A stretch of 64,000 nt of DNA from Myxococcota bacterium (GTDB lineage Bacteria; Myxococcota; B64-G9): positions 157 to 64,156 of the forward strand of contig JBFFBT010000001.1 in the NCBI GenBank assembly GCA_041560255.1, read 5' to 3'. The notes beneath the pieces were generated by a model. It had not been told where the DNA came from. It searched no databases and was given only the letters and a program-made list of their open reading frames with translations. Positions 1,661-22,656 of this stretch are shown piece by piece. The first letter of the stretch is position 1, and every line of letters starts with the position of its first letter. The translations under genes were made by a program, and so were the position numbers.

Positions 1661-1707
1661 GGTTTTTCCTCCTTCGTTAAGTGATATGGATATGACGTTT
1701 TGTGCTT

Positions 1708-7545: not shown

Positions 7546-7553
7546 CTCTACAA

Positions 7554-9425
7554 TTAGAAGATCTTCTTGACGGGAATCTTTTTCAGTTCCCATTCTTCGG
7601 TTTTGGGATCGATCCGGCAGTTGACAAACACGTTCCAGTTGTCGTTGTCCATCTTGGGCTTGTCGGAGCGGAAATAGTATCCCGGCCACCGGGTTTCTTC
7701 CCTGTACAGCATCGATCGCACATGGGCTTCGGCCTGATACATGCGGTGTGTGTTTTCCCAGCAGCGCATCAAGTCGTGCAGATCGGTGGCGGCCAATTTT
7801 TGGCTGTCTTCTTTCAACAGGGTCAGAAGCTCCAAGGCTTTTTCGAGGTTTTTCTGAGATGTCGTAAATTGAGCGGTCACACCGCCGGCATACTCGTCCA
7901 TGCACTTTTGCAGCCGCTGCATAAACGGGCGCCACAGGATGTAGTTCGGGTTGACGTCGATCTGGGTGGTCTTGTCTTTGTTTTCTTCGAACGTCTTGAG
8001 CGGCTGTAGAGCTTCTTCCTTGAGCTTTTCGATCTCGGCGCTGTTGTAGTTGTAGTTCGGTTTTTCTTTCAAGATGTAGCGGATGGCTGCCTTGCCTGCG
8101 ATTCGACCTTCGGCGTGGGAGCCGGAGGAGAACTTGTGGCTGGAAGCGCCCGATGCATCGCCGGCGCAGAACATGCCCTTTATGGTGGACATGTTGTCAT
8201 AACCCCAGAAATATTCAGGCGGGGAGATGTCTTCGGAGCCGCTGACCCAAGCGCCCGACGCGCCCGAATGAGAGCCGATGAAATACGGCTCGGCGGCGGC
8301 GATCTCGGAAGCTTTTTCTTCCGGCTGAATATCGCTGGCTGCCCACAGGATGGCTTGGGAGATGGTCATATCCAAGAAATCTTCCCATGCTTCGGCTTCG
8401 AGCTCTTTCAGTTTCTTTTTGGCGGCTTTCTCGTCGCCCGCGCTCTCGGCGATCTTTTTGATGGCTTCTTCGGTGCGCATATAGATGGGAGCTTTGCCTT
8501 CCATCACGTCCAACATCATGAGGTAGTTTCTCAGGTTGGCAGGCACCGGTTTCACCAGGCCGTAAGGGGCCCAGTTTTCGAGCTCGGGCTTGCGGGTTTC
8601 CATGTAGGACTCGCCGAGCGCGTTGGTCGCACGGGATTTGAACAACAAGAACCACGCACCCACCGGACCGTAAGCGTCTTTGAACCGCACCGGAATGAAG
8701 CGGACTTCCTGGCAGGTCATCTCGGCGCCGGCTTTGAGGGTAAAGTAGGCCGAGGCACCCGAGTTGAAAGGAGGATACCATGCACGGCCCGCGCCTTCGC
8801 CGGAAGACCGCGGCTTGAACACGCCGACAGCTCCGCCCATGCTTACCAGGGTGGCTTTCGCTTTGAAAATGTAAAATTTGTTTTCACGGATGGAAAATCC
8901 GATCGCTCCGGAGCACTTGTCGCCATCCAACAAGGGACCGGTGATGAAAACACGCTCATAGATGTTTTCGGTGCCCAACGCGTTTTTGGCCGCTTCGGCA
9001 ACGACGACTTTGTAAGATTCGCCGTTGATCATCAGCTGCCAGCGTCCTTCGTGGACATAGTTGCCTTCTTTGTCTTTCCAGATCGGCAATCCCCATTTCT
9101 CAAACAAGTGAACGGAGGAATCCACGTGCCGGGCGATGTTGGCAACCAAGTCTTCACGGGTGATGCCCATCAAGTCGTTGCGGACATAATCCACATAATC
9201 TTTGATCGTGTTTTCGCCGTCTTTCAACCCAACGTACTGGTTGATAGCCGAGAGTCCCATTGCTACTGCGCCGGAACGATCCATGGCGGCTTTGTCAACC
9301 AACGTAACCTTCAGTCCGTTCTTCTTTGCCCAGTAAGCGGCTTCCCCAGCGGCGCCGCAGGCCGCCATACCGCCACCGAGGATAAGAAGATCAGTTGTGA
9401 CCTCTACGGTTTCGAAGTTAGCCAT
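7554..9425 (-). CDS. aprA: adenylylsulfate (APS) reductase alpha subunit
   Basis: MANFETVEVTTDLLILGGGMAACGAAGEAAYWA (FAD site) shows end-to-end similarity to AprA. Strong SD AAGGGAGGAGACAGAT before the ATG at 9425. The upstream extension to 9455 would overlap aprB. Confidence 0.9.
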   Translation of the reverse strand: MANFETVEVTTDLLILGGGMAACGAAGEAAYWAKKNGLKVTLVDKAAMDRSGAVAMGLSAINQYVGLKDGENTIKDYVDYVRNDLMGITREDLVANIARHVDSSVHLFEKWGLPIWKDKEGNYVHEGRWQLMINGESYKVVVAEAAKNALGTENIYERVFITGPLLDGDKCSGAIGFSIRENKFYIFKAKATLVSMGGAVGVFKPRSSGEGAGRAWYPPFNSGASAYFTLKAGAEMTCQEVRFIPVRFKDAYGPVGAWFLLFKSRATNALGESYMETRKPELENWAPYGLVKPVPANLRNYLMMLDVMEGKAPIYMRTEEAIKKIAESAGDEKAAKKKLKELEAEAWEDFLDMTISQAILWAASDIQPEEKASEIAAAEPYFIGSHSGASGAWVSGSEDISPPEYFWGYDNMSTIKGMFCAGDASGASSHKFSSGSHAEGRIAGKAAIRYILKEKPNYNYNSAEIEKLKEEALQPLKTFEENKDKTTQIDVNPNYILWRPFMQRLQKCMDEYAGGVTAQFTTSQKNLEKALELLTLLKEDSQKLAATDLHDLMRCWENTHRMYQAEAHVRSMLYREETRWPGYYFRSDKPKMDNDNWNVFVNCRIDPKTEEWELKKIPVKKIF

Positions 9426-9439
9426 ATCTGTCTCCTCCC

Positions 9440-9877
9440 TTACTTCTTGGTCCATACTTCAGGTGTTCCACAAGATGCCGGTTCGGTATACAGAGCAGGA
9501 CTGTTGATATCCGGCTCGTTGGCCCAACCGCCCGCAGGCTCCGCTTTGCCTTCCGGGGTTGTACGGATGGGGAACTTGAAGCGTTTCACTTGGCCACTGC
9601 GGAATTTCACCGTCCACATGATGTTGTCGGTCGAGCGCATGGGTACGACGGAAGCGCCCATGGGGACGAAATCGGCGTAACCGCGCACATCGACAGCCTG
9701 GGTCGGGCAAATCTTGACACAGTTGTAGCATTCCCAGCATTGGGAAGGATCGCGGTTGAAAGCCTTCATCTTGTCCTTGTCGAGAACCATCAAATCATTG
9801 GGACAGATGTACTGGCAGGCGGTCTTGTCGAGCGCCTTGCACCCGTCACACTTATCCGGGTTTACAAAACTTGGCAT
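9440..9877 (-). CDS. aprB: adenylylsulfate reductase beta subunit (2x[4Fe-4S])
   Basis: MPSFVNPDKCDGCKALDKTACQYICPNDLM ... CWECYNCVKICP ... KRFKFPIRTTPEG is a textbook AprB. SD is CCAAGGAGGTGACGA. Confidence 0.9.
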   Translation of the reverse strand: MPSFVNPDKCDGCKALDKTACQYICPNDLMVLDKDKMKAFNRDPSQCWECYNCVKICPTQAVDVRGYADFVPMGASVVPMRSTDNIMWTVKFRSGQVKRFKFPIRTTPEGKAEPAGGWANEPDINSPALYTEPASCGTPEVWTKK

Positions 9878-10116
9878 TCGTCACCTCCTTGGCCTATTCG
9901 GCCAATTTGCACGTTGGGGTTGTGTTTCAAAGTTCAACCGTTTGAACGACTTATGAAGCCACTTCATCGGTACCTCTTACTGCCACCCTCTTTTGGGAAA
10001 CCCATGATCCCTCTCTTTGCAGGCGAGCTAAGTTACTCAGCAGTAAAGAAATATGTCAAGGTGAAAATTTAGATGGTGACGATAAATGGATTTGATGGTT
10101 ATTTGGTGGACTGTGG
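9878..10116 (-). promoter_or_regulatory. aprBA leader/promoter region with GTTCAAccgtTTGAAC palindrome (about 9933-9948)
   Basis: 240-bp non-coding region upstream of aprB, downstream of the LysR gene. Contains a 6-4-6 palindrome and AT-rich stretches. Promoter elements were not resolved. Confidence 0.35.
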
Positions 10117-11061: not shown

Positions 11062-11495
11062 GCATCCGGTTTCGTATACCGGCGGATTAAATCGGTCGCT
11101 CATCAAAGTTATCTATAAGGAGCCACCAAAATAGTTTATACATAACTGCCATAATTTAATGAGTTGTCAAGGAATTTCGGAATCAATTGTAAAAAAGACG
11201 TCTTTTTTTTAAAATATATTTAAATGTTTTTCATTAATATAATTACGACAGAACGGCATTTTTATGAATTCATGAATGTTCTTTCCCCTCGATCTGTGCT
11301 CTTTCGGGACATATCAATTTGGTTTATCCCTATGATATAAATTTTATCTTTGACATCGACCTCTTTAAATGGAATAGATTTGTGCTCACAGCGAGGCCCG
11401 TATATTTGAATTATAAAAAGTGCTTATTTATCAAAGAGTTGCAGTAAACCTTGTTTGTGAAGTCTCATCAAATTGCAGCGGCGAAAGGAGCTATC
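11062..11495. promoter_or_regulatory. AT-rich divergent promoter region between LysR gene and dsrA
   Basis: About 430 bp of low-GC non-coding sequence (runs of A/T, TTTAAATGTTTTTCATTAATATAATTA) lies between divergent genes. It is the expected location of the dsrABD promoter and of LysR autoregulation sites. Confidence 0.5.
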
Positions 11496-12677
11496 ATGGT
11501 CAAGTTGAGAGAAACACCCAAAGTGGATGAATTGCTAAAAGGTCCATGGCCGAGCTTCGTGAAGGAGATTAAAAAAAGTGCGGTATCGAAACCAGCTGCG
11601 AACGATTTGCTCGGCGTGCTGGAACGCTCCTACACTGAAAGAATCGGCCACTGGAAACACGGCGGTATCGTGGGGGTCATGGGATATGGCGGAGGAGTTA
11701 TCGGGCGGTACAACGATCTCCCCGAAGAGTTCCCGGACGTAGCCCATTTTCATACCATCCGAGTCAATCAACCCGCCGGTTGGTTCTACACTTCCGATAC
11801 CATCCGCAAAGTATGCGATATTTGGGATAAGTATGGTTCGGGCATCACCAATATGCATGGATCCACCGGAGATATGGTGCTTTTGGGATGCAATACGGAT
11901 GCCTTGGAGCCGATCTTTTCGGAGCTGACCGCCATCGGATACGACTTGGGCGGATCGGGTTCGGACTTGCGGACCCCCAGCTGTTGCTGTGGCGAGGCCA
12001 GATGCGAGTGGGCATGTTATGACACCATGGCGCTGACCCACGAATTGACGATGCATTTTCAGGATGAGCTCCACCGGCCGGCTTTTCCGTATAAATACAA
12101 AATCAAATCCGCAGGTTGTCCCAACGACTGTGTGGCCTCCATTGCGCGGGCGGATATGTCGATTATCGGAACCTGGCGTGACGGCATCCAGATGGACCAA
12201 GCGGAAGTCGCGAAATACGCATCGGCCGGCGCGTTTGACATGCAGAAGGATGTTGTCGATCGTTGCCCGACCAAGTGCATGAGCTGGGACGGTAAAAAGC
12301 TTGCCATTGACAACGAGAATTGTGTCAAATGTATGCATTGTATCAATGTCATGCCCAAGGCGCTCGCTCCCGGAAAAGACCGCGGTGCAGCGATCCTCAT
12401 CGGAGCCAAGGCTCCCATCATCGGTGGTGCTTTGTTGTCTTCGGTCGTCGTGCCGTTTTTGAAGATCGAAGAGCCTTATGAGGATGTCAAGGAGCTGTGT
12501 GAGGCCATCTGGGATCTTTGGGGTGAGCACGGTAAAAATCGTGAGCGTGTGGGTGAGTTTATTCAGCGCATCGGCATGGGGAACTTCCTCGAGCAAATCG
12601 GCCTGGAGCCGATTCCCGAGATGGTTGTGCATCCTCGCACCAATCCATATATTTTCTTTGAACTCGGAGAGGAATAA
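11496..12677 (+). CDS. dsrA: dissimilatory sulfite reductase alpha subunit
   Basis: [22 protein letters not shown], siroheme/FeS Cys motifs ([20 protein letters not shown]), and the ferredoxin insert [12 protein letters not shown]. Strong SD AAAGGAGCTATC before the ATG at 11496. Confidence 0.92.
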
Positions 12678-12725
12678 CAGAATCGTCATTGAGTAAAACG
12701 ACTCGAATAAACGGAGGATATTCAC

Positions 12726-13808
12726 ATGCCAGTCGCGAAAGACAGAAAAACCGATATCGGCCCCCCTCATTATGAAAATTTCTTGCCGCCGGTCATTAAA
12801 AAGAATTACGGCAAGTGGAAGTACCACGAGATTGTCAAGCCCGGCGTGTTGATGCATGTCGGTGAGTCGGGTGACAAGCTTTGGTCCGTAAGGGCCGCTA
12901 CCCCCAGGCTTGCCAGCATTGAAACCCTGCGTCTTTTTGCGGACATCGCAGATGAGTTTGCAGACGGCTACATGCGCTGGACCAGCCGCAACAATATTGA
13001 GTTTTTGATCTCTGACGGGTCCAAGGTCGATCCGTGTATCGCCAAGCTGAAAAAAGAAGGTTATCCGGTCGGTGGAATCGGTCCGTCCATTACCAACATC
13101 GTGCATACCCAAGGATGGGTTCATTGTCACTCGGCCGCCACCGATGCTTCCGGTGTGGTCAAGGCCATCATGGATGACTTGTTCCCCTATTTCGAGGACA
13201 TGAAACTCCCTGGAAAGCTCCGGATCGCTTTTGCCTGTTGTCTGAATATGTGCGGTGCGGTGCATTGTTCGGACATCGCGGTATTGGGCGTACATCGAAG
13301 GGCTCCCGATATCAAACATGATCTCATGGCGAAGCAGTGCGAGATTCCTTCTACTGTCGCTGCATGTCCGACCGGCGCGATCCGGCCCAAGACAATAGAC
13401 GGGCATCAATCCGTCGAGGTTATTCAAGAGCAGTGCATGTATTGCGCCAACTGCTATACCGTATGTCCGGCCATGACCCTCAACGATCCCAATACGGACG
13501 GAATATCGATTTGGGTGGGTGGCAAGGTCAGCCAGGCACGTCACGAGCCCATGTTCTCCAAGTTGGCTATTCCTTTTATCCCCAACAATCCTCCCCGCTG
13601 GCCCGAAGTGGTCACGGCGGTCAAGAAGATTGTCGAAGTGTATGCCGCCAACGCGCGCCCATTCGAGCGCATGGGTGAATGGATCGAGCGGGTAGGTTGG
13701 CCGAAGTTCTTCGAGCTGACCGATATTCCGTTTACAAAGTATCATATTGATGACTTCACGCATGCAGGAGAGACGTTCAAACGTTCCATCCATTTCCGGC
13801 AGCGGTAG
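12726..13808 (+). CDS. dsrB: dissimilatory sulfite reductase beta subunit
   Basis: [57 protein letters not shown] align closely with DsrB. Confidence 0.92.
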
Positions 13809-13817
13809 GAGAAGGTT

Positions 13818-14051
13818 ATGGAAAGTGTCGAAAAAGTAGCCGAAGCGATGTACCAGATGGTCAAGGAATATCATGGCAAGAAAAACCTCAAGGCTCTCGA
13901 CCTCACCAAAGCCATGATCGAGAAATACGGAGAGGACAACTGCGATAAAAAGTTGTGTAAGCAGGCCATCCGGCAGTTGATCGATTCCGGGCGTTGTACG
14001 TATTCGTATGTTGGTGGAAGCTATATCGTTCTTCCGCCGGACAGCAAGTAA
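13818..14051 (+). CDS. dsrD: DsrD (small winged-helix protein of reductive dsr operons)
   Basis: 77 aa, sited immediately after dsrB. Carries the conserved C-terminal YSY..GG motif (CTYSYVGGSYIVLPP). Confidence 0.85.
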   Translation: MESVEKVAEAMYQMVKEYHGKKNLKALDLTKAMIEKYGEDNCDKKLCKQAIRQLIDSGRCTYSYVGGSYIVLPPDSK

Positions 14052-14064
14052 CGACATAAGTCAT

Positions 14065-14106
14065 CCCGGGGAGGATTACATTTCGAAGATTGTACTCCTC
14101 CCCGGG
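14065..14106 (+). terminator. GC-rich hairpin downstream of dsrD (candidate intra-operon attenuator/terminator)
   Basis: Perfect 11-bp inverted repeat cccggggagga ... tcctccccggg with a 20-nt loop, 14 nt after the dsrD stop. No clear U-tract. Confidence 0.4.
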
Positions 14107-14228
14107 AATTATCATGTAAGAAAAGAACGCGCCGATCTTTTACTCCGGATGGGAGTGGACGGGCTTATCATAAATATAATAATTCGTTTGATGTATGTGA
14201 AGCATTTGGCCGCGAAAGGTGGATTAGC

Positions 14229-15911
14229 ATGGCGCTACTGAAAAAAAAGGCAAGTAAACCTCTAGTGGTAAGAGGGACCGGAGGAGGGGGTGGATCGGTA
14301 TCTTCTCTCCGACCCAACCAGGTCATGAAGGCGGTTCCTTGTGTAACAAACTGTCCCAGCGGCAATCAGATTCGATTGTGGGTCGGTACGATCGCCCAAA
14401 GGGACAAAGCCGGGCTCGGCGAGGAAGAAGCCTACCAGCGTGCCTGGCAGATATTGGTCTCGACCAACCCATTCCCGGCAGTCATGGGCCGGGTGTGCCC
14501 CCATCCGTGTGAGCCGAATTGCAACCGGGAAGCCAAAGACGGGGCCGTAGCCATCAATGCGGTTGAGCGTTTCATCGGGGATTGGGCCATCGAAAAAAAG
14601 CTGTCTTTGAGCAAGCTGCCCGATGTCGAGCCGAAATCCGACTCCATCGGAGTGATCGGGGCAGGACCCGCGGGGCTTTCTTTCGCGTATCAGATGGCGC
14701 GGCGGGGTTATCCGGTTACAGTGTATGAAAAAACCAGCAAGGCCGGCGGAATGTTGTTGTGGGGTATCCCGTTCTACCGCCTGCCGGAAGCTGTGTTGGA
14801 GGCCGAAATTCGGCGTATCCTCGACCTGGGCGTGGAGCTGAAACTGAACACGACGGTGGGCAAGGATATCAAAGTTGCCGATCTCAAAGCCAAGCATAAG
14901 CTGCTTTTCCTCGGGATTGGCGCCGACAAGGGTAGACTCATGCGCATTCCGGGTGAGGAAGGCGGCAATGTATGGACCGGCACGGATTATCTTTTCAGGG
15001 TCAACAACGGCGAAAAGGTGGATGTGGGCAAGCAGGTAGTGGTTATCGGAGGAGGCGACACGGCCATTGACGCCGCGCGCGCGGCTCGCAGAGCCGGGGC
15101 CGAGGTGACCATACTCTATCGTCGTACCCGGGATGAAATGCCCGCCATCGACAGTGAGATCGAAGACGCACTAAAAGAAAAAGTGAAAATCGAGTACCTG
15201 GCGGCTCCCTTGGAAGTGAAACGCTCGGACGGTAAGGTCGCGGCTCTGGTGGTGCAGAAAATGGAGCTCGGAGAACCGGATTCGTCCGGTAGGCGCAGGC
15301 CTGTACCGATTGAAGGCTCCACCTACGAGGTGGCTGCCGATACGATCGTTGCGGCGATTTCACAGGAGCCGAATTGGGATCCGTTGGAAGGTTTACGGCC
15401 CGATGAAAAGTGGCTCAAGGCGGATAAGCATGGCAAGGTGCGTGATGGTTTGTATACGGGTGGAGATGCGTTGACCCTGGGTCTTGCGACCATCGCGATC
15501 GGTCAGGGCAGAGCCGCCGCCGAGGCTGCGCACGCCGAATTGCAAGGTCAGCAGCCGTCGCGCAAGCCCGAGCTTCCGGTCATTACCAAAGATAAGATGC
15601 GTTTGGATCTTTATGATCCCAAAGAGAGAACCAAAAGAGCACACCGGCCGGCCGAGGAGTGGCTTTCCAAACCCAATGACGAAATCGATTTGGGTATCGA
15701 CAACCAGCAGTTTTTGGAAGAAGTCGGGCGTTGTTTCTCTTGCGGCCTGTGTTTTGGGTGTGAACGTTGTTGGATGTTTTGCACGCCGTCCTGTTTCAAA
15801 AAAGTGGATGGCGCGGGTCCGGGAAATTATTACACCATCAAGTTGGATACCTGTGATGGATGTAAAAAGTGCGCGGACGAATGTCCCTGCGGTTTTTTAG
15901 AAATGGTGTAA
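14229..15911 (+). CDS. dsrL: DsrL-like NAD(P)H:acceptor oxidoreductase (GltD-family iron-sulfur flavoprotein with C-terminal 2x[4Fe-4S] ferredoxin domain)
   Basis: N-terminal GltD-type Cys clusters (CVTNCPSGN, CPHPCEPNC), FAD motif VIGAGPAGLSFAY, NAD(P) motif VVVIGGGDTAIDAAR, and a C-terminal CFSCGLCFGCERC ... CDGCKKCADECPC. This domain order matches DsrL and not NfnB/SudA. Good SD. Confidence 0.6.
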   Translation: MALLKKKASKPLVVRGTGGGGGSVSSLRPNQVMKAVPCVTNCPSGNQIRLWVGTIAQRDKAGLGEEEAYQRAWQILVSTNPFPAVMGRVCPHPCEPNCNREAKDGAVAINAVERFIGDWAIEKKLSLSKLPDVEPKSDSIGVIGAGPAGLSFAYQMARRGYPVTVYEKTSKAGGMLLWGIPFYRLPEAVLEAEIRRILDLGVELKLNTTVGKDIKVADLKAKHKLLFLGIGADKGRLMRIPGEEGGNVWTGTDYLFRVNNGEKVDVGKQVVVIGGGDTAIDAARAARRAGAEVTILYRRTRDEMPAIDSEIEDALKEKVKIEYLAAPLEVKRSDGKVAALVVQKMELGEPDSSGRRRPVPIEGSTYEVAADTIVAAISQEPNWDPLEGLRPDEKWLKADKHGKVRDGLYTGGDALTLGLATIAIGQGRAAAEAAHAELQGQQPSRKPELPVITKDKMRLDLYDPKERTKRAHRPAEEWLSKPNDEIDLGIDNQQFLEEVGRCFSCGLCFGCERCWMFCTPSCFKKVDGAGPGNYYTIKLDTCDGCKKCADECPCGFLEMV

Positions 15912-15923
15912 CCATCGGCTTTT

Positions 15924-18020
15924 TTGGGATTGGCGGGCGCATTGCCTAGAGTGGTCATTGCTGCTCTTGCCGGAGACGCCGGCAAGACGTTGGTTAGCCT
16001 GGGTTTGGTGCGGGCTTGGCACAACCGGGGTCAAAAGGTGGCTCCCTATAAGAAGGGACCGGACTATATTGACGCAGCCTGGTTGGGGTCGGCCGCCCAA
16101 TGCCCGGCGTATAACTTGGACAGTTTCATGATGTCCGAGCAAGCCATCTTGGGTTCACTTCAAAGAGCGGAAAAAAAAGCCGCCATTACCGTCATAGAAG
16201 GTAATCGGGGCTTGTTCGATGGGCTGGATGCACAAGGATCGCATTCTACTGCTCAGTTGGCCAAGTTGACCAAAACGCCGCTCGTATTGGTTGTCAATGC
16301 CGCCAAATCCACTCGTACGATTGCCGCATTGGCATTGGGATGCAAATCCATGGATCCCGAGCTTGACATCGCAGGCGTCATCATCAACAACTTGGCGACC
16401 AGGAGACAAGAAGAGATCATTCGGACAAGTTTGCGGGATGCAACCGGCCTGGAAGTGGTCGGATGCATTCCCAAGCTCACGGATCAAAGGCTCTGGAGCC
16501 GCCATTTGGGACTGCTGACCCATTCGGAGCATCCTACTTCGGTTGAAGTACTCGAGCGGTTGGCCGGGATTGCCGAACGCTACTTGGATTTGTCTCAGAT
16601 CCTCAAAGTCGCCCAGGCGGCTCCCGCGCTGTCCGGTATGAATACGCACATGCAGGACGAGCCTACCCAAAGGGATAGCGCTCATGCAGATACGAGTGGG
16701 CTCAAAAGGGTTCGCATCGCGGTGTTGAAGGATCCGGCTTTTTCTTTTTATTATCCTGAAAACCTCGAACAACTCGGCAAACAGGGCGCCGAGCTGGTGT
16801 ATACATCGCCGCTTTCCGACAAGGGATTTCCGGATGTACATGCCGTGTATGCGGGTGGTGGTTTTCCGGAAGTGTATGCCGCAGCCCTTTCGGCCAACCG
16901 GACGTACCGAACCGATCTGAGCGATAGAATCCGCCAGGGGCTGCCTGTATGGGCAGAGTGCGGTGGGTTGATGTACTTGTCCAAATCGTTGGTGGATGCG
17001 GGGGTTGTCTTTCCCATGGTAGGGGCTCTGGGTGTGGTCTGCGAGCAGACGCCCAAACCCAAAGGTCACGGATATGTCAAGCTTCGGGTCGATGGAGAGA
17101 ATCCGTTTTTCCCTGCCGGAACCGAGGTGAAAGGCCACGAGTTTCACTATTCGTTCATACGGGATGGACTCGAAAAAGCCGATACGGCGTTTTTGGTCGA
17201 ACGGGGAGTCGGCTTGGGAAACGGCCGGGATGGTATCGTTGCCGGTAATGTGTTGGCCACCTATACCCATGTTCACGCGCTGGGATTGCCCGAGTGGAGC
17301 CGGGCTCTGGTGGACGCGGCCGAAGGCCGGGGCTGCCTCGAGCAATTCGTAAAGGCGGCATCCGGATCGGCCTTTGGGAAGAGACGCTCCGTGCCCCGGG
17401 CAACCGGACTTACCGAGCATCGCCTCGAGAGGCTGCGAAGCAGTATGGCTCAGAGCGCGGACTTGATTGCCAAGTCCGAAAGAGTACGGTTCCCCTACAC
17501 GGGACCGAAGCTCATTGCGCCGGACGAGGAAGGCGGACCGAGAAATCTGCGCGAGCGAATCGAACGTTTGGTGGAAAAGAATGACGTGGATGGTTTGCGT
17601 GGATTGGTGGCCCGGCAAGCTCGGGCGGTTCGGTATCTGGTGGGGTTTTCATATCAGCGGGATGACGACAAAAGAAAAACAGCGGTCGAGGCGATTGCTC
17701 TGGCCGGCGGTTACCATCCCGATCTGGTGAAAAATATCATCCGCCGTTTGGTATGGGCTATGAACGACGAATCCGGCACCAACGCGCAGACGGCGCCGCA
17801 AGTGCTTCGGGCGGTGTCCGAGAAACATCCTGAGCTTTTGTTGCCGATGGTTCCAGATTTGGTGAGATTATGTGACGACGACAATCTGCGGCCGGGACTT
17901 TTATCTACATTAAAAAACATACAAGACAGTTTCCCCGGCCGGGTTGACGATCAAGTTGGAAATGTGTTGAATCATGATGTGCCAAAAGGAGTGAGCCGTG
18001 AAGCCGGCGATCAAATATAG
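15924..18020 (+). CDS. dsrN: cobyrinic acid a,c-diamide synthase-like siroheme amidase (DsrN) with about 230-aa C-terminal extension of unknown function
   Basis: The CbiA/CobB N-terminal P-loop region (IAALAGDAGKTLVSLGL) and the glutamine amidotransferase domain occupy about residues 1-460. A further roughly 230 aa follow with no recognised family. The start is ambiguous (TTG 15924 or GTG 15951). Confidence 0.7.
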   Translation: MGLAGALPRVVIAALAGDAGKTLVSLGLVRAWHNRGQKVAPYKKGPDYIDAAWLGSAAQCPAYNLDSFMMSEQAILGSLQRAEKKAAITVIEGNRGLFDGLDAQGSHSTAQLAKLTKTPLVLVVNAAKSTRTIAALALGCKSMDPELDIAGVIINNLATRRQEEIIRTSLRDATGLEVVGCIPKLTDQRLWSRHLGLLTHSEHPTSVEVLERLAGIAERYLDLSQILKVAQAAPALSGMNTHMQDEPTQRDSAHADTSGLKRVRIAVLKDPAFSFYYPENLEQLGKQGAELVYTSPLSDKGFPDVHAVYAGGGFPEVYAAALSANRTYRTDLSDRIRQGLPVWAECGGLMYLSKSLVDAGVVFPMVGALGVVCEQTPKPKGHGYVKLRVDGENPFFPAGTEVKGHEFHYSFIRDGLEKADTAFLVERGVGLGNGRDGIVAGNVLATYTHVHALGLPEWSRALVDAAEGRGCLEQFVKAASGSAFGKRRSVPRATGLTEHRLERLRSSMAQSADLIAKSERVRFPYTGPKLIAPDEEGGPRNLRERIERLVEKNDVDGLRGLVARQARAVRYLVGFSYQRDDDKRKTAVEAIALAGGYHPDLVKNIIRRLVWAMNDESGTNAQTAPQVLRAVSEKHPELLLPMVPDLVRLCDDDNLRPGLLSTLKNIQDSFPGRVDDQVGNVLNHDVPKGVSREAGDQI

Positions 18021-18564
18021 TCCTGAAAAAATCAAAGAATTACGCGGTAAAGTAGACGCCGAACCAAATTCGGTCGATGCGCACAACCACCTGGGCCTGG
18101 CTCTCTATCGAAACGGAGCTCTCAAAGAAGCCGCCAAGCTTCTCAGGCGGGCGGTGGAGTTGGACGCGGATTGCGCGGAGGCCTGGGTCAATCTGGGTGG
18201 TATCTTATTGTCTGCCTGGGATTTTCAGGGCTGTGTCGACGCCAATGCCAAAGCCGCCGATCTTCGGCCCGATCTGATGCAGGCGCATTATAACCGGGGG
18301 CTTGGATATATGTACTTGGGTGATGCGGGCAATATGGTTACATGCTTCGAACGGGTGCTTGATCTCGATCCCAAAAACCCTGGTGGTCATTATCATTTAG
18401 CGGTAGCTTTACTTGCGGTCGGCGACTGCGCTTCGGCTCGTGAAAGCCTTGATCGTGCCATGCAGCTGGGTTTCAACCCCGAGCCCGATTTTATCAAAGC
18501 GTTGGAGAAGCATAAAAACAGACAAGATGGTTCAGCGACCATCCCAACAACACACCAATCTTAA
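17998..18564 (+). CDS. TPR-repeat protein
   Basis: TPR-like helical repeats (AHNHLGLALYRNGALKEAAKLLRRAVELD ... AHYNRGLGYMYLGD). GTG start with a good SD. Overlaps the dsrN end by 23 nt. Confidence 0.6.
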   Translation: MKPAIKYSPEKIKELRGKVDAEPNSVDAHNHLGLALYRNGALKEAAKLLRRAVELDADCAEAWVNLGGILLSAWDFQGCVDANAKAADLRPDLMQAHYNRGLGYMYLGDAGNMVTCFERVLDLDPKNPGGHYHLAVALLAVGDCASARESLDRAMQLGFNPEPDFIKALEKHKNRQDGSATIPTTHQS

Positions 18565-18578
18565 GAGGAGGAAGTACT

Positions 18579-18896
18579 ATGGCGCATATAGACGTTGAGG
18601 GTGTACAGATTGAAATCGACGAGGACGGATTCATTCAAGAGCCGGATAAATGGAATCAGGGTGTTGCGGCGGCTTTGGGAAAGGGCGAAGGCGTCGATAA
18701 CTTGACCGACGACCATTGGAAAGTGGTAAATTTCCTTCGCGAGTATTATCTTGAGTTCGGTGTGGCTCCCATGATCCGGAAACTATGCAAATCCACCGGA
18801 TTTAAGCTCAATCAGATTTACGAGCTGTTTCCTTCCGGCCCTGCCAAAGGCGCCTGCAAAGTGGCAGGTTTGCCCAAGCCGACCGGTTGCGTATAA
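18579..18896 (+). CDS. dsrC: DsrC (TusE-like sulfur carrier / sulfite reductase gamma subunit)
   Basis: 105 aa. C-terminal arm ...CKVAGLPKPTGCV carries the two conserved Cys of DsrC. Strong SD AAGAGGAGGAAG. Confidence 0.9.
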   Translation: MAHIDVEGVQIEIDEDGFIQEPDKWNQGVAAALGKGEGVDNLTDDHWKVVNFLREYYLEFGVAPMIRKLCKSTGFKLNQIYELFPSGPAKGACKVAGLPKPTGCV

Positions 18897-19017
18897 CGGC
18901 GATTGGCTTGATCCGGGACGGGATCCAATCCAATACGGGTTTTCATGGGTATAGCCCGATGGAGTATTGATCCAAAGCCGCGGTGTCTTTCGGTTTTTGA
19001 CCGAAAAGGAGCGTGGT

Positions 19018-19575
19018 GTGAGCGGTACAATGGAGTATCGAAAGATCCTAATCGAAAAAAAATCCGCCATCCTCGAACGCTGGCGGAAACTTCTGCTGGA
19101 TACCTATTCTCCCGATGCAGCTTCGTTTTATGGAAGCGTCAAGGACAGATTTGCGAATCCGGTCGGAAGTGTTTTTTCTGATGCTACACAGAAACTGTTC
19201 GACCTGTTGTTGAATGAATCGGATCCCGAGCGGATTTGCGCTTGTCTCGAAGAAATGATCAAGATAAGAGCTGTTCAGGATTTTTCACCTTCCCGGGCGG
19301 TTGGTTTCGTCATTCTGCTCAAGCAGGCCGTTTTGGACGTACTGAACGAGCAGAACAAAGAAGTTGATGTTTTGCATCAATTCATCAAGTTTGGGGCCCT
19401 GATCGATCAAGTGAGCTTATTTGCCTTCGATATATATGTAAGCTGCAGAGAGCGAGTGTACCAGCTGAGGGTGAATGAAGTAAAGAGGAGGGTCTCGAGG
19501 GTCTTGAACTGGACGGAATCAACCGATCCGGGAGGTGATCCGGATCCGAAGCGGGATTGTCTCGAGTCGCAATAA
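19018..19575 (+). CDS. hypothetical protein immediately upstream of dsrM (DsrT-position protein)
   Basis: About 185-aa helical protein with no family recognised by eye. A gene at this position (dsrT) precedes dsrMKJOP in many organisms. The start is ambiguous: GTG 19018 has an SD, with ATG 18967 and ATG 19030 as alternatives. Confidence 0.45.
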   Translation: MSGTMEYRKILIEKKSAILERWRKLLLDTYSPDAASFYGSVKDRFANPVGSVFSDATQKLFDLLLNESDPERICACLEEMIKIRAVQDFSPSRAVGFVILLKQAVLDVLNEQNKEVDVLHQFIKFGALIDQVSLFAFDIYVSCRERVYQLRVNEVKRRVSRVLNWTESTDPGGDPDPKRDCLESQ

Positions 19576-19596
19576 CGATCAGCGAGGTTAGGTCAT

Positions 19597-20589
19597 ATGA
19601 AAGTCGCACTATCATTCATCGCAGTCCTCGGCCTGTTTGCGCTGGCCGTGTTGTTGGTGGAATACGCGGGTGCTCATTGGTTTTTTGGTGTCTTGATCCC
19701 CTACATGGCCATCGTATTGTTTTTGGTTGGTATGGTGCATCGGGTTTTGAGCTGGGCCAAGTCGCCGGTGCCATTTCGAATTCCGACTACTTGCGGCCAG
19801 GAAAAGTCATTGCCTTGGATCAAACAGAATAAACTCGACAATCCTTCCAGCCTGATCGGGGTGATAGGCAGAATGGCATTGGAAGTGTTGTTTTTCCGAT
19901 CTTTGTTTCGCAATACCAAGACGGAGATAAAAGAAGGTCCCCGAGTGGTCCACGGTTCGAACAAGTGGTTGTGGTTGGGTGGATTGGTATTTCACTACAC
20001 TTTTTTGATCATCTTTTTAAGACATCTTAGGTTTTTCACCGAGCCGGTGCCTGGATTTGTAACATTTTTAGAAAGTTTGGACGGCTTTTTCCAAATGGGT
20101 GTACCGGTGTTGTTTTTGACCAGCTTTCTTTTTTTGGCTGCGGTCGGTTATCTGTTTCTCAGACGTGTTCTGTCTCCCCAGCTACGCTACATCACGTTGG
20201 CCAATGACTATTTCCCGTTGTTTTTGCTGTTGGGCATCGGATGCACGGGAGTGTTACTCAGGCACTTTATGAAAACAGATGTTGTCGGCATCAAGGAGCT
20301 CGGCTTGGGGCTCTTGAGCTTCAACCCGGTAGCGCCTGCGGATGTCGACAGCCTATTTTATGGTCACTTGTTTTTGGTTTGTTTGTTGATAGGTTATTTC
20401 CCTTTCGGCAAGCTCGCTCACGCTGCGGGTGTGTTCATGAGCCCTACCCGAAATCTCGCCAACAACAACAGGATGGTTCGCCATGTCAATCCTTGGGATT
20501 ATCCGGTCAAGGTGCACACCTATGAAGAATACGAGGATGATTTCAGAGATAAAATGAAGGCGGCCGGAATCCCGGTGGATAAGGAGTAG
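19597..20589 (+). CDS. dsrM: DsrM (NarI/HdrE-like di-heme b membrane subunit)
   Basis: About 6 TM helices with conserved His. Its position opens the dsrMKJOP block. Confidence 0.8.
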   Translation: MKVALSFIAVLGLFALAVLLVEYAGAHWFFGVLIPYMAIVLFLVGMVHRVLSWAKSPVPFRIPTTCGQEKSLPWIKQNKLDNPSSLIGVIGRMALEVLFFRSLFRNTKTEIKEGPRVVHGSNKWLWLGGLVFHYTFLIIFLRHLRFFTEPVPGFVTFLESLDGFFQMGVPVLFLTSFLFLAAVGYLFLRRVLSPQLRYITLANDYFPLFLLLGIGCTGVLLRHFMKTDVVGIKELGLGLLSFNPVAPADVDSLFYGHLFLVCLLIGYFPFGKLAHAAGVFMSPTRNLANNNRMVRHVNPWDYPVKVHTYEEYEDDFRDKMKAAGIPVDKE

Positions 20590-20591
20590 CC

Positions 20592-22277
20592 ATGACTGAG
20601 GCAAAACCAGATCAGATGGAGTTTTATCAGCACGATCAGATGTCGAAAGTGGATTTTTGTCCTCCCAAGACGGGCTGGATGGATACACCCGCGGATTTCA
20701 GACCCGGCAGTTGGATTTATCCGGGCAAAGCCCGGCATCTCGAGTATCTGGATCTTCCCAACCCAAGAGAATGGTCCCCGACGGATGCAGACTGGAAGCT
20801 GCCTGAAAACTGGAAACAGATCGTTTTGGAAGGCATTCGGGAGAGACTCAGTAAGTTTCGCACCTTTAAGATCTTTATGGATATCTGTGTGCGTTGTGGG
20901 GCGTGCGCCGATAAATGTCATTTCTTCATAGGTGGTGGTGATCCGAAAAACATGCCGGTGCTTCGGGCGGAGCTTTTGCGATCTATTTATCGAAAAGACT
21001 TCACCATGTTGGGCAAGGTTTTCGGCAAGCTCGCGGGTGGAAGAGAGCTGACCTACGATGTCATCAAGGAGTGGTTCTATTATTTCTTTCAGTGCACGGA
21101 GTGCCGCCGTTGCTCGGTGTTTTGCCCTTACGGCATCGATACCGCCGAGATCACCATGATTGGAAGAGAGCTGCTCGGCTTGCTGGGTATCTACGTGAAT
21201 TGGATCATCGAGCCGGTGGCAAACTGCTTCAGAACCGGTAACCACCTCGGCATACAACCCCACGGCCTCAAGGATACTTTGGAGTTTTTTGCCGAAGACA
21301 TCGAGGAATCGACCGGGATCAGCATCGATATACCCATCAACAAAAAGGGTGCCGAAGTATTGTTTGTCACGCCGTCGGGTGATTTCTTGGCGGATCCGGG
21401 TACGTTTACCTGTATGGGGTACATGGCCCTGTTTCATGAAATCGGGTTGGACTACACTTGGAGCACATATGCTTCCGAGGGCGGCAATTTCGGGTTGTTC
21501 ACGTCTCACGAGGTCATCAAAAGGCTCAACGCAAAAATATATGCCGAGGCCAAAAGGTTGGGCGTGAAGTGGATCTTGGGAGGTGAGTGCGGTCACATGT
21601 GGCGCGTATTGCACCAATATATGGATACAGTCAGCGGTCCGGCTGATTTTCTGGAAGTTCCCAAGTCACCCATAACCGGTACGGTGTTCGAAAACGCCAA
21701 GTCGACCAAGATGATACATATCGTCGAGTTTACCGCCGATTTGATCAAACACGGCAAGTTGAAGCTTCGCCCGGAACGCAATGATCACATCAGGGTAACG
21801 TATCATGATTCCTGCAACCCGGCCAGGGCGGCGGGGATTTTGGAAGAGCCGAGGTACATACTCAAAAACGTATGCAACCACTTCTACGAAATGCCAGAAA
21901 ACACCATTCGTGAGCAGACCTTTTGTTGTGGAGGCGGCGCGGGGCTGGGAACCGACGAAAACATGGAAATGCGTCTTCGAGGTGGTCTACCCCGGGGAAA
22001 TGCAGTGAAGTTTGTACAAGACAAGTTCGGGGTCAACCAGTTGGCGGCCATGTGTGCCATCGATCGGGCCACCTTGGTTACCGTGTGTGATTATTGGGCC
22101 CCCGGAGTAGCCGTCACCGGTATTCATGAGTTGGTGGCCAACGCCATGATCATGAAAGGCGAGAAAGAGCGGGAGGTCGACTTCCGCTTGGAGCCGCAAC
22201 CTCATTGGAGCTCCGGAGCGACGCAGGCTGCGGGTGAAAAGAAGAACGGGGCAGCGGAGGACCCTAGCAATGCATGA
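20592..22277 (+). CDS. dsrK: DsrK (HdrD-like catalytic FeS subunit with CCG domains)
   Basis: CVRCGACADKC and CTECRRCSVFCP ferredoxin motifs plus CCG-type Cys motifs (CNPARA..., FCCGGGAG). SD is GGATAAGGAG. Confidence 0.85.
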   Translation: MTEAKPDQMEFYQHDQMSKVDFCPPKTGWMDTPADFRPGSWIYPGKARHLEYLDLPNPREWSPTDADWKLPENWKQIVLEGIRERLSKFRTFKIFMDICVRCGACADKCHFFIGGGDPKNMPVLRAELLRSIYRKDFTMLGKVFGKLAGGRELTYDVIKEWFYYFFQCTECRRCSVFCPYGIDTAEITMIGRELLGLLGIYVNWIIEPVANCFRTGNHLGIQPHGLKDTLEFFAEDIEESTGISIDIPINKKGAEVLFVTPSGDFLADPGTFTCMGYMALFHEIGLDYTWSTYASEGGNFGLFTSHEVIKRLNAKIYAEAKRLGVKWILGGECGHMWRVLHQYMDTVSGPADFLEVPKSPITGTVFENAKSTKMIHIVEFTADLIKHGKLKLRPERNDHIRVTYHDSCNPARAAGILEEPRYILKNVCNHFYEMPENTIREQTFCCGGGAGLGTDENMEMRLRGGLPRGNAVKFVQDKFGVNQLAAMCAIDRATLVTVCDYWAPGVAVTGIHELVANAMIMKGEKEREVDFRLEPQPHWSSGATQAAGEKKNGAAEDPSNA

Positions 22278-22653
22278 TGCTGGCAAAGTGATCCTAGGAC
22301 TGGGCATTTTTCTGGCTTTGGTCACGTTTCCCATTTGGTTTACCGTGGCCACGGGTAACTACGGTTATACTCCCGAGCTTCAAATGCCCGAAGGCTATAC
22401 ACAATGTGTCGAGTCAAAAGAGTACATGACCTCCTGGCACATGGACTTGCTCGATCAATGGCGGGATGAAGTGGTTCGCGAGGGCAAGCGTTACTACGTT
22501 TCGAAAACGTATGGCGATAAGCACGAGATGAGCCTGACCAAAAACTGCATGAAATGTCACAACGACAAGGCGCAATTTTGTGACAAATGCCACAATTATT
22601 TGGGTGTCGAGCCGTATTGTTGGGATTGCCACATCGAGCCCGAAGGGAACTGA
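22270..22653 (+). CDS. dsrJ: DsrJ (periplasmic triheme cytochrome c)
   Basis: Three CxxCH motifs (CMKCH, CDKCH, CWDCH) and an N-terminal TM/signal anchor. Start at ATG 22270 with SD GGAGG. The longer ORF-track start at 22234 overlaps dsrK. Confidence 0.8.
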   Translation: MHDAGKVILGLGIFLALVTFPIWFTVATGNYGYTPELQMPEGYTQCVESKEYMTSWHMDLLDQWRDEVVREGKRYYVSKTYGDKHEMSLTKNCMKCHNDKAQFCDKCHNYLGVEPYCWDCHIEPEGN

Positions 22654-22656
22654 GCC

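Follow-up and report, generated by a model that had tools for sequence, protein, structure and literature searches.

A DsrL-2-type iron-sulfur flavoprotein, predicted to carry electrons from NADPH to sulfite reductase, encoded downstream of dsrAB in a contiguous sulfur gene island

Identification of a DsrL-2-type protein

The window analyzed here is a stretch of 64,000 nucleotides of bacterial DNA, and its sequence indicates that the ORF at 14229 to 15911 encodes a genuine DsrL-2-type iron-sulfur flavoprotein, a predicted electron carrier from NADPH to sulfite reductase. The protein very probably belongs to DsrL-2C in the nomenclature of Diao 2023, the subgroup that accompanies reductive DsrAB and DsrD, and as such would deliver electrons from NADPH to DsrAB. 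For reductive sulfur metabolism, no direct link between pyridine nucleotides and dissimilatory sulfite reductase other than DsrL-2 is known, and its presence guides the reading of sulfur physiology across many uncultured phyla. Both Tan 2019 and Loeffler 2020 reported the dsrABDL-2 arrangement; Diao 2023 gave the name DsrL-2C to the DsrL-2 of reductive systems and took it, where it neighbors reductive dsrAB, as a sign of reductive metabolism. The dsrABD-dsrL-2 unit has been described between 2018 and 2023, including in Myxococcota metagenome-assembled genomes (MAGs), and because the protein class, the NADPH specificity, and the gene order are already in that literature, the present locus leaves the general picture unchanged. 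It contributes one more clean example, in which sat, qmoABC, aprBA, dsrABD, dsrL-2, dsrN, dsrC, dsrT, and dsrMKJOP lie in a single island, and it supports the published residue signatures, especially Arg versus Cys at the position of NfnB C42, which tracks reductive versus oxidative DsrAB.

Overall domain organization

The dsrL-2 ORF starts with ATG, and an SD-like sequence (AAAGGTGGA) lies 7 nt 5' of the start codon. Pfam models place Fer4_20 at residues 35 to 124, Pyr_redox_2 at residues 140 to 427 with an embedded Pyr_redox/NAD(P) fold at residues 270 to 320, and Fer4_21 at residues 508 to 559, which bears out the domain order of the original prediction (GltD-like cysteine clusters, FAD and NAD(P) folds, and a C-terminal 2x[4Fe-4S] ferredoxin domain). 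That this order differs from that of NfnB/SudA also held, as NfnB (4ylf_B) aligns to residues 37 to 441 only and thus lacks the linker and the ferredoxin domain. The FAD/NADP region carries GAGPAG at residues 144 to 149 and GGGDTA at residues 274 to 279; the predicted structural model has a pTM of 0.84, with pLDDT values mostly above 88 across this region.

All 17 cysteines are confined to the two Fe-S regions, namely, C38, C42, C90, C94, and C98 at the N terminus and the remainder between residues 502 and 554. The N-terminal part is a two-cluster Fe-S domain, but it is not fully GltD-like: its ligand positions are occupied by five cysteines and Glu113, and the two other distal-cluster positions are occupied by Ser25 and Arg28. 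In the C-terminal ferredoxin domain, 10 of the 12 cysteines (C502, C505, C508, C511, C514, C518, C542, C545, C548, and C552) are invariant in 32 homologues; they include the canonical motif C542-x2-C545-x2-C548-x3-C552-P and the eight conserved cysteines expected of DsrL. The NAD segment comprises 83 residues, versus 113 in an insertion-bearing homologue (P0128), and the linker comprises ~62 residues (440 to Cys502), versus 82 to 98 in some long-linker members of the family. The protein has neither the ~32-aa NAD(P) insertion nor the ~30-aa linker extension, both of which are DsrL-1A traits.

Table 1. Features of the dsrL-2 locus in window coordinates (the dsrL-2 coordinates include the stop codon)
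Feature	Position	Strand	Size or residues	Basis
sat	395..1834	-		NCBIfam match
qmoC	1708..2814	-		NCBIfam match
qmoB	2843..5086	-		NCBIfam match
qmoA	5083..6423	-		NCBIfam match
CxxCxxCC protein	6342..7151	-		CxxCxxCC Pfam match
aprA	7554..9455	-		NCBIfam match
aprB	9440..9877	-		NCBIfam match
dsrA, reductive bacterial type	11451..12677	+		TIGR02064, 585 bits
dsrB	12726..13808	+		TIGR02066, 519.5 bits
Divergent dsrD-like winged-helix protein	13818..14051	+	77 aa	Fold, size, position, published usage
GC-rich hairpin	14064..14107	+	12-bp outer and 4-bp inner stem, just after dsrD stop	Sequence and fold
dsrL-2 (DsrL-2C type)	14229..15911	+	560 aa, ~60.9 kDa	ORF, NF009410/PRK12771 above cut-off, Pfam domains, diagnostic residues, tree
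N-terminal two-[4Fe-4S] domain	14301..14600	+	Residues 25-124	Alignment to NfnB 4ylf_B, 32 homologues
FAD domain with embedded NADP domain	14637..15551	+	Residues 137-441	Pyr_redox_2/Pyr_redox matches; NfnB, NfnI, GltD alignments
YRR NADP(H) 2'-phosphate-binding motif (predicted)	15117..15125	+	Y297-R298-R299	Aligns with NfnB YRR, invariant in alignment
Linker, short form	15552..15719	+	Residues 442-497	NfnB homology stops at 441
C-terminal 2x[4Fe-4S] ferredoxin domain	15720..15908	+	Residues 498-560	Fer4_21 508-559; 12 Cys, 10 invariant
dsrN (sirohaem amidase homologue) fused to DVU0298-family C-terminal part	15924..18020	+		PRK01077/cobB 414.7 bits; NF045662 at residues 546-682
TPR protein	17998..18564	+		TPR families; syntenic TPR gene in closest relative
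dsrC, both C-terminal cysteines (…ACKVAGLPKPTGCV)	18579..18896	+		PF04358, TIGR03342
dsrT	18967..19575	+		RsbRD_N
dsrM	19597..20589	+		NF038037
dsrK	20592..22277	+		NF045796
dsrJ	22234..22653	+		Position and weak haem-motif-like matches only
dsrO	22657..23448	+		NF045797
dsrP	~23456..24613	+		NF045798

Diagnostic residues of the Fe-S and NADP(H) sites

Residues were mapped by alignment to Thermotoga maritima NfnB (4ylf_B, 468 aa) and 32 homologues; a further, fast alignment was unreliable at the N terminus, where the motifs were read directly by regular expressions. In this mapping, C38, C42, C90, C94, C98, and E113 are equivalent to NfnB C47, C51, C90, C96, C100, and E117, whereas the positions of NfnB Cys39 and Cys42 are taken by Ser25 and Arg28. 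The assignment of Ser25 requires a 5-residue insertion relative to NfnB, which is common to P0128 and a reference protein of Loeffler 2020 (L041). All of these residues, together with Y297-R298-R299, are invariant in the 32 homologues. According to Loeffler 2020, DsrL proteins have Ser or Thr at NfnB Cys39 and keep C47, C51, C90, C96, C100, and E117, and an Arg at NfnB C42 distinguishes the DsrL-2 proteins whose partner is reductive DsrAB. By analogy with that work, S25, R28, C38, and C98 are the predicted ligands of the distal cluster, and C42, C90, C94, and E113 are those of the proximal cluster. C502 and C505, rather than S25 and R28, might complete the distal cluster; their RCxxC sequence resembles the N-terminal RC39xxC42 of NfnB, but the local HMMER match (0.2 bits) falls short of significance.

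A check on L041, a DsrL-2 from Nitrospirae RBG_19FT_COMBO_42_15 that is paired with oxidative rDsrA, confirmed the mapping; L041 reads S-W-K-C-P with spacing identical to that of S-S-L-R-P in the window protein, and its cysteine at the Arg28 position is as published. Among the matches listed, all S-x-x-R-P proteins (~30 loci in named genomes) follow dsrA-dsrB-dsrD, and the Ser/Arg signature is confined to dsrABD-linked proteins. Inspection of the second Rossmann fold, which the original prediction had proposed as a check of cofactor specificity, identified Y297-R298-R299, a motif for NADP(H) that NfnB and all DsrL-2 proteins share. Since Loeffler 2020 connected YRR with the exclusive use of NADP(H) by Desulfurella amilsii DsrL-2, the predicted cofactor partner is NADPH specifically; the proposed link from NAD(P)H to sulfite reductase agrees with the DsrL-2 signatures and is narrowed to that extent. 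Loeffler 2020 further requires that a dsrL gene not be immediately linked to genes for pyruvate/ketoisovalerate:ferredoxin oxidoreductase; no such gene adjoins dsrL-2, which is flanked by the dsrD-like ORF and dsrN. At the sequence level, the window protein carries all of the features published for DsrL and DsrL-2 (Loeffler 2020).

Genomic context

The gene order is dsrA-dsrB-dsrD-dsrL-2-dsrN-TPR-dsrC-dsrT-dsrMKJOP, adjoining sat-qmoCBA-aprAB (Table 1). Hallmark genes of Myxococcota are present on the contig, and the host is probably an uncultured Myxococcota bacterium. The dsrL-2 gene starts 420 nt 3' of dsrB, and dsrA and dsrB lie 1.5 to 2.8 kb upstream on the same strand. The true start of dsrA is probably the ATG at 11496, giving 393 aa, the length called in an independent assembly. 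The best PDB matches of DsrA are the DsrA proteins of Archaeoglobus fulgidus and Desulfovibrio vulgaris, and in a DsrA tree it lies outside the rDsrA clade (96/100 support); judged from its sequence, DsrA is not of the oxidative type. Downstream, dsrN begins 12 nt after dsrL-2; its fusion to the DVU0298-family part is called as a 689-aa protein in an independent assembly as well, while the two parts are separate genes in the closest relative (L001). Matches to the neighboring DsrB and DsrC occur only in short Logan contigs of run SRR29257342, and a search for contigs encoding the DsrL-2 protein itself gave no record. The window holds a single dsrA, a single dsrB, and a single dsrL. No dsrEFH, sox, or second rdsrAB was identified among the scanned ORFs of the 64-kb window (smaller ORFs lay outside the screen), and no nfnA/sudB or gltB partner gene occurs near dsrL-2.

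The original prediction placed dsrL directly after dsrABD, and dsrA and dsrB are indeed upstream; the dsrD label, however, comes from fold and synteny, not from sequence. Pfam gave no significant match of the 77-aa ORF to DsrD. Of 18 orthologues, 3 matched PF08679 below significance (best E value, 0.032), and PF08679 was absent from the top 25 families in a search with 121 orthologues. A profile search of the PDB yielded no significant link to canonical DsrD, nor did an hhalign comparison with the verified 1ucr sequence (E values of 0.12 and 0.39). What speaks for the DsrD label is confined to the fold, size, and position of the ORF and to usage in the literature. Just downstream lies the GC-rich hairpin; of 262 tiled 60-nt segments, none folds more stably, and at 16 of 28 related loci a counterpart ranks within the top 5%. 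It is probably an mRNA 3' stabilizer or a partial terminator between dsrABD and dsrL. A scan of the dsr region for promoter and terminator consensus sequences gave nothing above the shuffle expectation.

Family models and phylogeny

The best NCBIfam match of the protein is PRK12771, which covers its full length with 547.5 bits against a cut-off of 516. The GltD/NfnB/AegA/YgfK models all score far under their own cut-offs (TIGR01316, 294.1 versus 471.75 bits; TIGR01318, 235.1 versus 482.95; TIGR01317, 165.1 versus 447.7). A neighbor-joining tree (100 bootstraps, NfnB as the outgroup) places the protein in three nested clades with bootstrap values of 94, 100, and 97; nearly all members of the 100/100 and 97/100 clades follow dsrA-dsrB-dsrD, and NfnB is a distant outgroup. 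The deep nodes reach only 29 to 48/100, too little to establish all DsrL, or all DsrL-2C, as monophyletic, and the tree was built without the sequences of D. amilsii DsrL-2, Allochromatium vinosum DsrL-1A, and Chlorobaculum tepidum DsrL-1B, so that it contains no named DsrL-1. Together with Ser25/Arg28 and YRR, these clades uphold the proposed DsrL-2-like identity, and the placement within NfnB/SudA or GltD that would have spoken against it was not found.

Relatives at 72%, 68%, and 61% identity are all encoded directly after dsrA-dsrB-dsrD. Among the matches listed, the dsrD-dsrL-dsrN position is kept in MAGs labeled as Myxococcota, Acidobacteriota, Gemmatimonadota, Ignavibacteria, Zixibacteria, Actinomycetota, and Planctomycetota, and the DsrA tree is congruent with the DsrL tree near the tips. 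Beside the subclade of the window protein (89/100), a group of five proteins with 53 to 55% identity to it (L009, L012, L014, P0121, and P0122) has no dsr neighbors and lacks both Ser and Arg. Therefore, similarity alone does not guarantee a role in the Dsr system, and given this close paralogous clade, DsrL is better called from signature residues and context.

Proposed electron transfer and alternative readings

In the proposed mechanism, NADPH would bind the second Rossmann fold, where YRR would hold the 2'-phosphate, and would reduce the FAD; electrons would then leave the FAD singly, through the pair of [4Fe-4S] clusters at the N terminus, through the tethered two-cluster ferredoxin domain at the C terminus, or through both, and pass to DsrAB, at which sulfite would be reduced together with DsrC, and DsrMKJOP would recycle the DsrC trisulfide. 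The predicted cofactor content, NADPH specificity, DsrAB contact, and direction of electron flow follow from the kinetics of D. amilsii DsrL-2 and the rDsrAB-DsrL complex of A. vinosum. In the present locus, the sole pointers to a functional and physical partnership with DsrAB are the conserved synteny and the congruent DsrA and DsrL trees.

Two alternatives concern the identity of the protein. Its core shares 34 to 39% identity and the fold of NfnB, NfnI, and GltD, and its homologues are often auto-annotated as "glutamate synthase"; an NfnB/SudA-type or GltD protein is nevertheless rejected, with hardly any probability left to it, on the family-model scores, the end of the NfnB alignment at residue 441 (with an extension of 120 aa beyond), and the tree, and the replacement of two NfnB cysteine ligands by Ser and Arg and the missing partner gene argue in the same direction. 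A generic PRK12771-type NADPH:acceptor (ferredoxin-type) oxidoreductase, located in the dsr cluster by coincidence and serving no specific Dsr role, would be in keeping with the very large size of this family (3,881 representatives at an E value of ≤1e-30) and with its many members of the same domain order outside any dsr context, including the GSWR group and the L012 group above. We regard it as very unlikely, as the position between dsrD and dsrN is kept across the MAG groups named above and the Ser/Arg signature occurs only in dsrABD-linked proteins (both among the matches listed), and the DsrA and DsrL trees agree near their tips.

The other two alternatives accept a DsrL-2 protein and differ in its electron flow. 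During sulfur or sulfide oxidation or disproportionation, electrons could run in reverse, from DsrAB through DsrL-2 to NADP+, and the island would then encode a "disguised" pathway of oxidation or disproportionation instead of sulfate respiration. D. amilsii DsrL-2 catalyzes both directions (kcat/KM of 4200 for NADP+ reduction versus 870 s-1 mM-1), sulfur disproportionation occurs in D. amilsii itself, the sat, apr, and qmo steps could in principle run either way, and Loeffler 2020, Hausmann 2018, and Ferreira 2022 state that the direction is not assignable from these genes. Reverse flow is still unlikely here, although it deserves more weight than the other alternatives: DsrA does not belong to the oxidative type, a gene for a DsrD-like activator is present, neither dsrEFH nor sox nor a second rdsrAB was identified among the scanned ORFs of the window (smaller ones lay outside the screen), Arg28 marks the DsrL-2 proteins that go with reductive DsrA, and the setting is the one that Diao 2023 reads as reductive. 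A more speculative scheme is electron bifurcation, with NADPH donating at the FAD, one electron going to DsrAB/sulfite and the other reaching ferredoxin through low-potential Fe-S clusters, or confurcation in the opposite sense. The closest solved folds over the full length, linker and C-terminal Fe-S domain included, are the NfnB-like modules of the bifurcating Nfn-ABC (9bov_A), StnABC (8oh5_C), and NfnABC (9n5u_A) complexes, with TMq values of 0.77 to 0.79, and NfnB carries the bifurcating FAD. In addition, the clusters of A. vinosum DsrL have very low potentials (-330 and -390 mV), and Loeffler 2020 called their role "enigmatic," NADH-to-sulfite transfer not needing them. The unusual distal cluster, with its predicted Ser25 and Arg28 ligands, would then tune the low-potential branch, and exergonic NADPH-dependent sulfite/DsrC reduction would be coupled to ferredoxin reduction. 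If true, this would represent an unrecognized energy-coupling site in the sulfate/sulfite respiration of many uncultured dsrABD-L lineages. However, experimental hints are absent, a gene for ferredoxin or a second acceptor is not conserved in the cluster, shared descent alone may account for the similarity, and no mention of the idea turned up in the literature that could be searched, so that we consider bifurcation improbable and favor transfer from NADPH to DsrAB by DsrL-2C.

Comparison with known systems

The window protein resembles DsrL-2C (Diao 2023; model, D. amilsii DsrL-2 of Loeffler 2020) in domain order, in Ser/Arg at C39/C42, in YRR, in the short NAD(P) segment and linker, and in its position after dsrA-dsrB-dsrD; no tested property differs, the D. 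amilsii protein being compared by description only. What sets the locus apart is that dsrL-2 lies inside one contiguous sat-qmo-apr/dsr island and is followed by the dsrN-DVU0298 fusion and the TPR gene. The oxidative-context reference L041 shares 47% identity, the architecture, YRR, the N-terminal spacing, and a C terminus of the CP(C/S)xYIEM type, but it has Cys at the Arg28 position, follows rdsrAB without dsrD, and belongs to a different clade in the DsrL tree as well as in the DsrA tree. DsrL-1A and DsrL-1B (A. vinosum and C. tepidum), compared by description, have the same overall architecture and a presumed partnership with DsrAB; per Loeffler 2020, DsrL-1 lacks YRR, uses NAD(H), and has Cys at C42, and DsrL-1A additionally carries the insertion and the longer linker that are missing here.

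NfnB, the NfnI large subunit, SudA, and GltD have in common with the window protein the N-terminal Fe-S domain and the FAD/NADPH core (TM, ~0.65) with the YRR NADPH site. Unlike the 560-aa window protein, they comprise ~460 to 490 aa and end after the FAD domain with neither linker nor C-terminal ferredoxin, have an all-Cys distal cluster, and need a partner (NfnA/SudB or GltB). The NfnB-like modules in the large subunits of Nfn-ABC and StnABC are the best solved matches (E value, 3e-96; TMq, 0.79) and, unlike NfnB, align through the linker into the Fe-S region. They differ from the window protein in size (~950 to 1180 aa), in fusion to formate dehydrogenase-like or Fe-S domains, in belonging to three-subunit transhydrogenase-type complexes, and in having no dsr context.

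In favor of the assignment, several homologues with 60 to 71% identity carry the JGI label "dissimilatory sulfite reductase flavoprotein subunit." Of practical value is that standard pipelines give uninformative names to DsrL-2 ("NAD(P)-binding protein" or, often for homologues, "glutamate synthase") and to the adjacent DsrD-like ORF ("hypothetical protein").

Gene content of the dsr island

Judged by its gene content, the window holds a complete sulfate-reduction island with a single dsrA, dsrB, and dsrL. Short contigs of run SRR29257342 encode identical copies of DsrB and DsrC, and the independent assembly of that run also calls a 689-aa product for the fused dsrN, which makes a genuine fusion probable; L001, the closest relative, has the dsrN and DVU0298-family parts as two genes (467 and 152 aa). 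The flavoprotein and CysG genes directly after dsrP suggest that cofactor supply, and perhaps thiol/persulfide redox chemistry too, is co-located with the dsr genes. Myxococcota-typical genes lie downstream and indicate that the island is located in a Myxococcota-type genome, consistent with the closest homologues being labelled "Myxococcota bacterium" or "Deltaproteobacteria bacterium".

Coordinates of features in the window and in the DsrL-2 candidate (aa, residues of the candidate)
Feature	Position	Strand	Remarks
sat, qmoC, qmoB, qmoA, CxxCxxCC protein, aprA, aprB		-	followed by LysR-type regulator
dsrA, dsrB, 77-aa ORF, dsrL-2 candidate, dsrN, TPR protein		+
dsrC, dsrT, dsrM, K, J, O, P		+	3' of TPR gene; DsrC has both C-terminal cysteines
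77-aa ORF	13818-14051	+	at dsrD position
dsrD-dsrL gap	14052-14228
Hairpin	14064-14107		with inner 4-bp stem
dsrL-2 candidate	14229-15911	+	ATG start, 560 aa (ORF listing)
N-terminal segment	14229-14300 (aa 1-24)
Fer4_20	aa 35-124		N-terminal two-cluster domain, DPD/GltD/NfnB type (Pfam)
Pyr_redox_2	aa 140-427		Pfam
Second Rossmann fold	aa 270-320		inside Pyr_redox_2 (Pfam)
Linker end	15690-15746 (aa 488-506)
Fer4_21	aa 508-559		dicluster domain (Pfam)
dsrN	15924-18020	+	fused to DVU0298-family part
CoA-disulfide-reductase/NADH-oxidase-like flavoprotein (595 aa), then full-length CysG (sirohaem synthase)	24579-28163		directly 3' of dsrP
MXAN_6577-like Cys-rich protein; GltG-like adventurous-gliding protein with AgmX/PglI C-terminal domain	28220-30619; 58287-60728		Myxococcota hallmark genes
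YedE-family putative selenium/sulfur transporter, adjoining cysteine desulfurase/selenocysteine-lyase-like gene	44921-47452	-

Domain order and diagnostic residues

The candidate gene has a Shine-Dalgarno-like AAAGGTGGA 7 nt 5' of its ATG, and its product matches NF009410/PRK12771 over the full length (547.5 bits; NCBIfam cut-off, 516). The Pfam domains stand in the predicted order with a C-terminal ferredoxin, and all 17 cysteines fall within the two Fe-S regions. The alignment with Thermotoga maritima NfnB (PDB 4ylf_B, 468 aa) covers only residues 37 to 441 of the candidate, so the linker and C-terminal ferredoxin are additions relative to NfnB, which lacks this ferredoxin as had been claimed. 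Among other NCBIfam identities considered, NfnB/NADPH-glutamate synthase was rejected (TIGR01316, 294 against a cut-off of 472), as were GltD, AegA, YgfT, and YgfK, whose models all score far under their cut-offs.

DsrL has been defined as a protein of four-part domain order whose gene is complete, comes from a dsrAB-containing organism, and is not linked to PFOR/VOR genes; NfnB C47, C51, C90, C96, C100, and E117 are conserved, and the position of NfnB Cys39 is Ser or Thr in every DsrL (Loeffler et al. 2020, PMC7596348). At the position of Cys42, DsrL-1 keeps Cys, as does DsrL-2 with oxidative-type DsrA (rDsrA), and DsrL-2 with reductive DsrA has Arg, a Leu variant also being known; the YRR motif of DsrL-2 confers NADP(H) specificity, and DsrL-1A has an insertion of about 32 aa and a longer linker (PMC7596348). 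In the HMMER alignment, C38, C42, C90, C94, C98, and E113 of the candidate correspond to the six conserved residues in that order, and Y297-R298-R299 aligns with YRR, so the second Rossmann fold, where the original prediction had sought the choice between NADH and NADPH, carries the NADP(H)-type motif. S25-S-L-R28-P29 and eight further residues precede C38, and S25, R28, P29, the listed ligands, YRR, and ten C-terminal cysteines are invariant among 32 homologues (59 to 100% identity).

Because S25 and R28 can be equated with NfnB Cys39 and Cys42 only through a five-residue insertion, the assignment was checked separately on Nitrospirae RBG_19FT_COMBO_42_15 (L041), a named reference in which oxidative rDsrA accompanies DsrL-2 (Loeffler et al. 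2020, PMC7596348). In the DsrL-2 of this organism, S-W-K-C-P is followed after eight residues by C-x3-C-P, with spacing identical to the candidate but Cys in place of Arg28, matching the publication. One family protein, P0131, has Leu there (S-T-Q-L-P). Both the NAD(P) segment, at 83 residues, and the linker, at 62, are of the short type. With residues, motif, segment lengths, and named reference in agreement, the candidate is, at the level of sequence, a DsrL in all defining characters and a DsrL-2 of reductive systems.

Synteny and phylogeny

The order aprBA, LysR, dsrABD-L-N…C-T-MKJOP, or else dsrABD-x-L, recurs around homologues at 72%, 68%, and 61% identity. All ORFs of the 80 named-genome loci among the matches listed were searched with the Dsr proteins of the window. 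Proteins of the S-x-x-R-P type almost always lie 3' of dsrA-dsrB-dsrD (DsrA, 600 to 755 bits against the window DsrA), S-W-K-C-P proteins follow dsrAB without dsrD (430 to 485 bits), and dsr genes are absent beside proteins with a PorD-like GSWR…P N terminus and beside long fusion proteins. A Thermoleophilia MAG (B_ACT_02, L029, 1717-10517) carries tandem dsrABD-dsrL of the S-x-x-R-P type and then a second dsrAB-dsrL of the Cys type, rDsrA-like, a double set resembling those described for other Actinomycetota MAGs.

In a neighbor-joining tree (90 sequences, 538 columns, NfnB and NfnI as outgroup, 100 bootstraps), the candidate pairs with the L001 protein (94) within a 5-member clade (100) nested in a 21-member clade (97), whose members, one offshoot apart, are all dsrABD-linked; the S-W-K-C-P clade comes next, followed by non-dsr groups. 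Deeper nodes are weak (29 to 48), so monophyly is not claimed for all DsrL. In the DsrA tree, the L041-anchored rDsrA clade is found in 96 of 100 replicates and the window DsrA lies outside it, beside L001; among solved structures, the window DsrA is closest to the reductive DsrA of A. fulgidus and D. vulgaris. Sequence, synteny, and the tree placement among dsrABD-linked proteins support the predicted DsrL-2-like identity.

Beside the candidate's subclade (89/100) stands another, 53 to 55% identical to it (L009, L012, and L014, match ~6001-7610 in each; P0121 and P0122), with no dsr genes within 6 kb and no equivalents of Ser25 and Arg28; L012 has FHA and cNMP-binding genes as neighbours. This is apparently a DsrL-2C-derived paralogue taken into another role, and a trap for similarity-based dsrL calls.

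DsrL encoded alongside reductive dsrAB was reported in 2018, the dsrABDL-2 arrangement and its biochemistry were published in 2019-2020, and in 2023 the subgroup of reductive systems received the name DsrL-2C, with a listing of Myxococcota MAGs that carry dsrD and dsrL-2 (Diao et al. 2023). The candidate, whose nearest database protein is 84% identical, is a further example of DsrL-2C, a protein class and gene arrangement already published.

The dsrD position and the intergenic hairpin

The 77-aa ORF occupies the dsrD position as predicted, but a sequence link to DsrD was not found. It has no Pfam DsrD match; 3 of its 18 syntenic orthologues touch PF08679 (E at least 0.032), which is not one of the 25 best-ranked families with 121 homologues, and profile comparison with a DsrD sequence (verified, 78/78 identical to PDB 1ucr_A) was not significant (E, 0.12 and 0.39). 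The family has about 7,300 members; the top 120 listed with any source name are "hypothetical protein", apart from one misnamed protease subunit. The 121-sequence alignment shows two invariant cysteines, Cys47 and Cys60, and a wing motif Y-x-Y-x-G-G-S; canonical D. vulgaris DsrD has an equivalent of neither cysteine.

A perfect GC-rich hairpin, CCCGGGGAGGA…TCCTCCCCGGG, begins 13 nt 3' of the dsrD stop, and no T-run follows it. It ranks first in stability among 262 tiled 60-nt windows (8001-24000), and hairpins of similar strength and other sequence lie 3' of dsrD in 16 of 28 related loci (within the top 5% of each locus's windows, where chance would give about 1.4 loci). The window's hairpin probably serves as a 3' stabiliser or partial terminator separating dsrABD expression from dsrL-dsrN-dsrC.

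Predicted function

D. amilsii DsrL-2 is strictly NADP(H)-dependent (KM, 124 µM for NADPH), and a more reduced NADPH pool has been argued to be necessary to drive sulfite reduction (Loeffler et al. 2020, PMC7596348). By analogy, the candidate is predicted to oxidise NADPH at its FAD and to pass electrons through its Fe-S clusters to DsrAB, where sulfite would be reduced with DsrC. That it instead runs in reverse, during disproportionation or oxidation, seems to us unlikely. A bifurcating role is given some room because, in the predicted structure (pTM, 0.84), the best whole-length likeness is to the NfnB-like modules of bifurcating Nfn-ABC and StnABC (TMq, 0.77 to 0.79), whereas NfnB and GltD match the core only, and because the low-potential clusters of DsrL are as yet unexplained; we nevertheless regard such a module as very improbable, and NADPH-dependent electron delivery to DsrAB as the preferred reading.

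Terminal segments of the protein

Residues 1 to 24 read M-[AG]-L-L-K-K, then a Lys-rich and a Gly/Ser-rich stretch; M1, L3, and L4 are invariant among the 32 homologues, and the segment is predicted to be disordered (pLDDT <50). The extreme N terminus may be a docking peptide. The linker end, …QQFLEEVGRC502FSC505G, looks like the N-terminal …EALEEAQRC39LQC42P of NfnB, a segment missing from DsrL's own N terminus; the HMMER match of residues 488 to 506 to it is not significant (0.2 bits). There are 12 cysteines in the C-terminal region against 8 ligand positions, and C502 and C505 may be candidate ligands for the N-terminal distal cluster.
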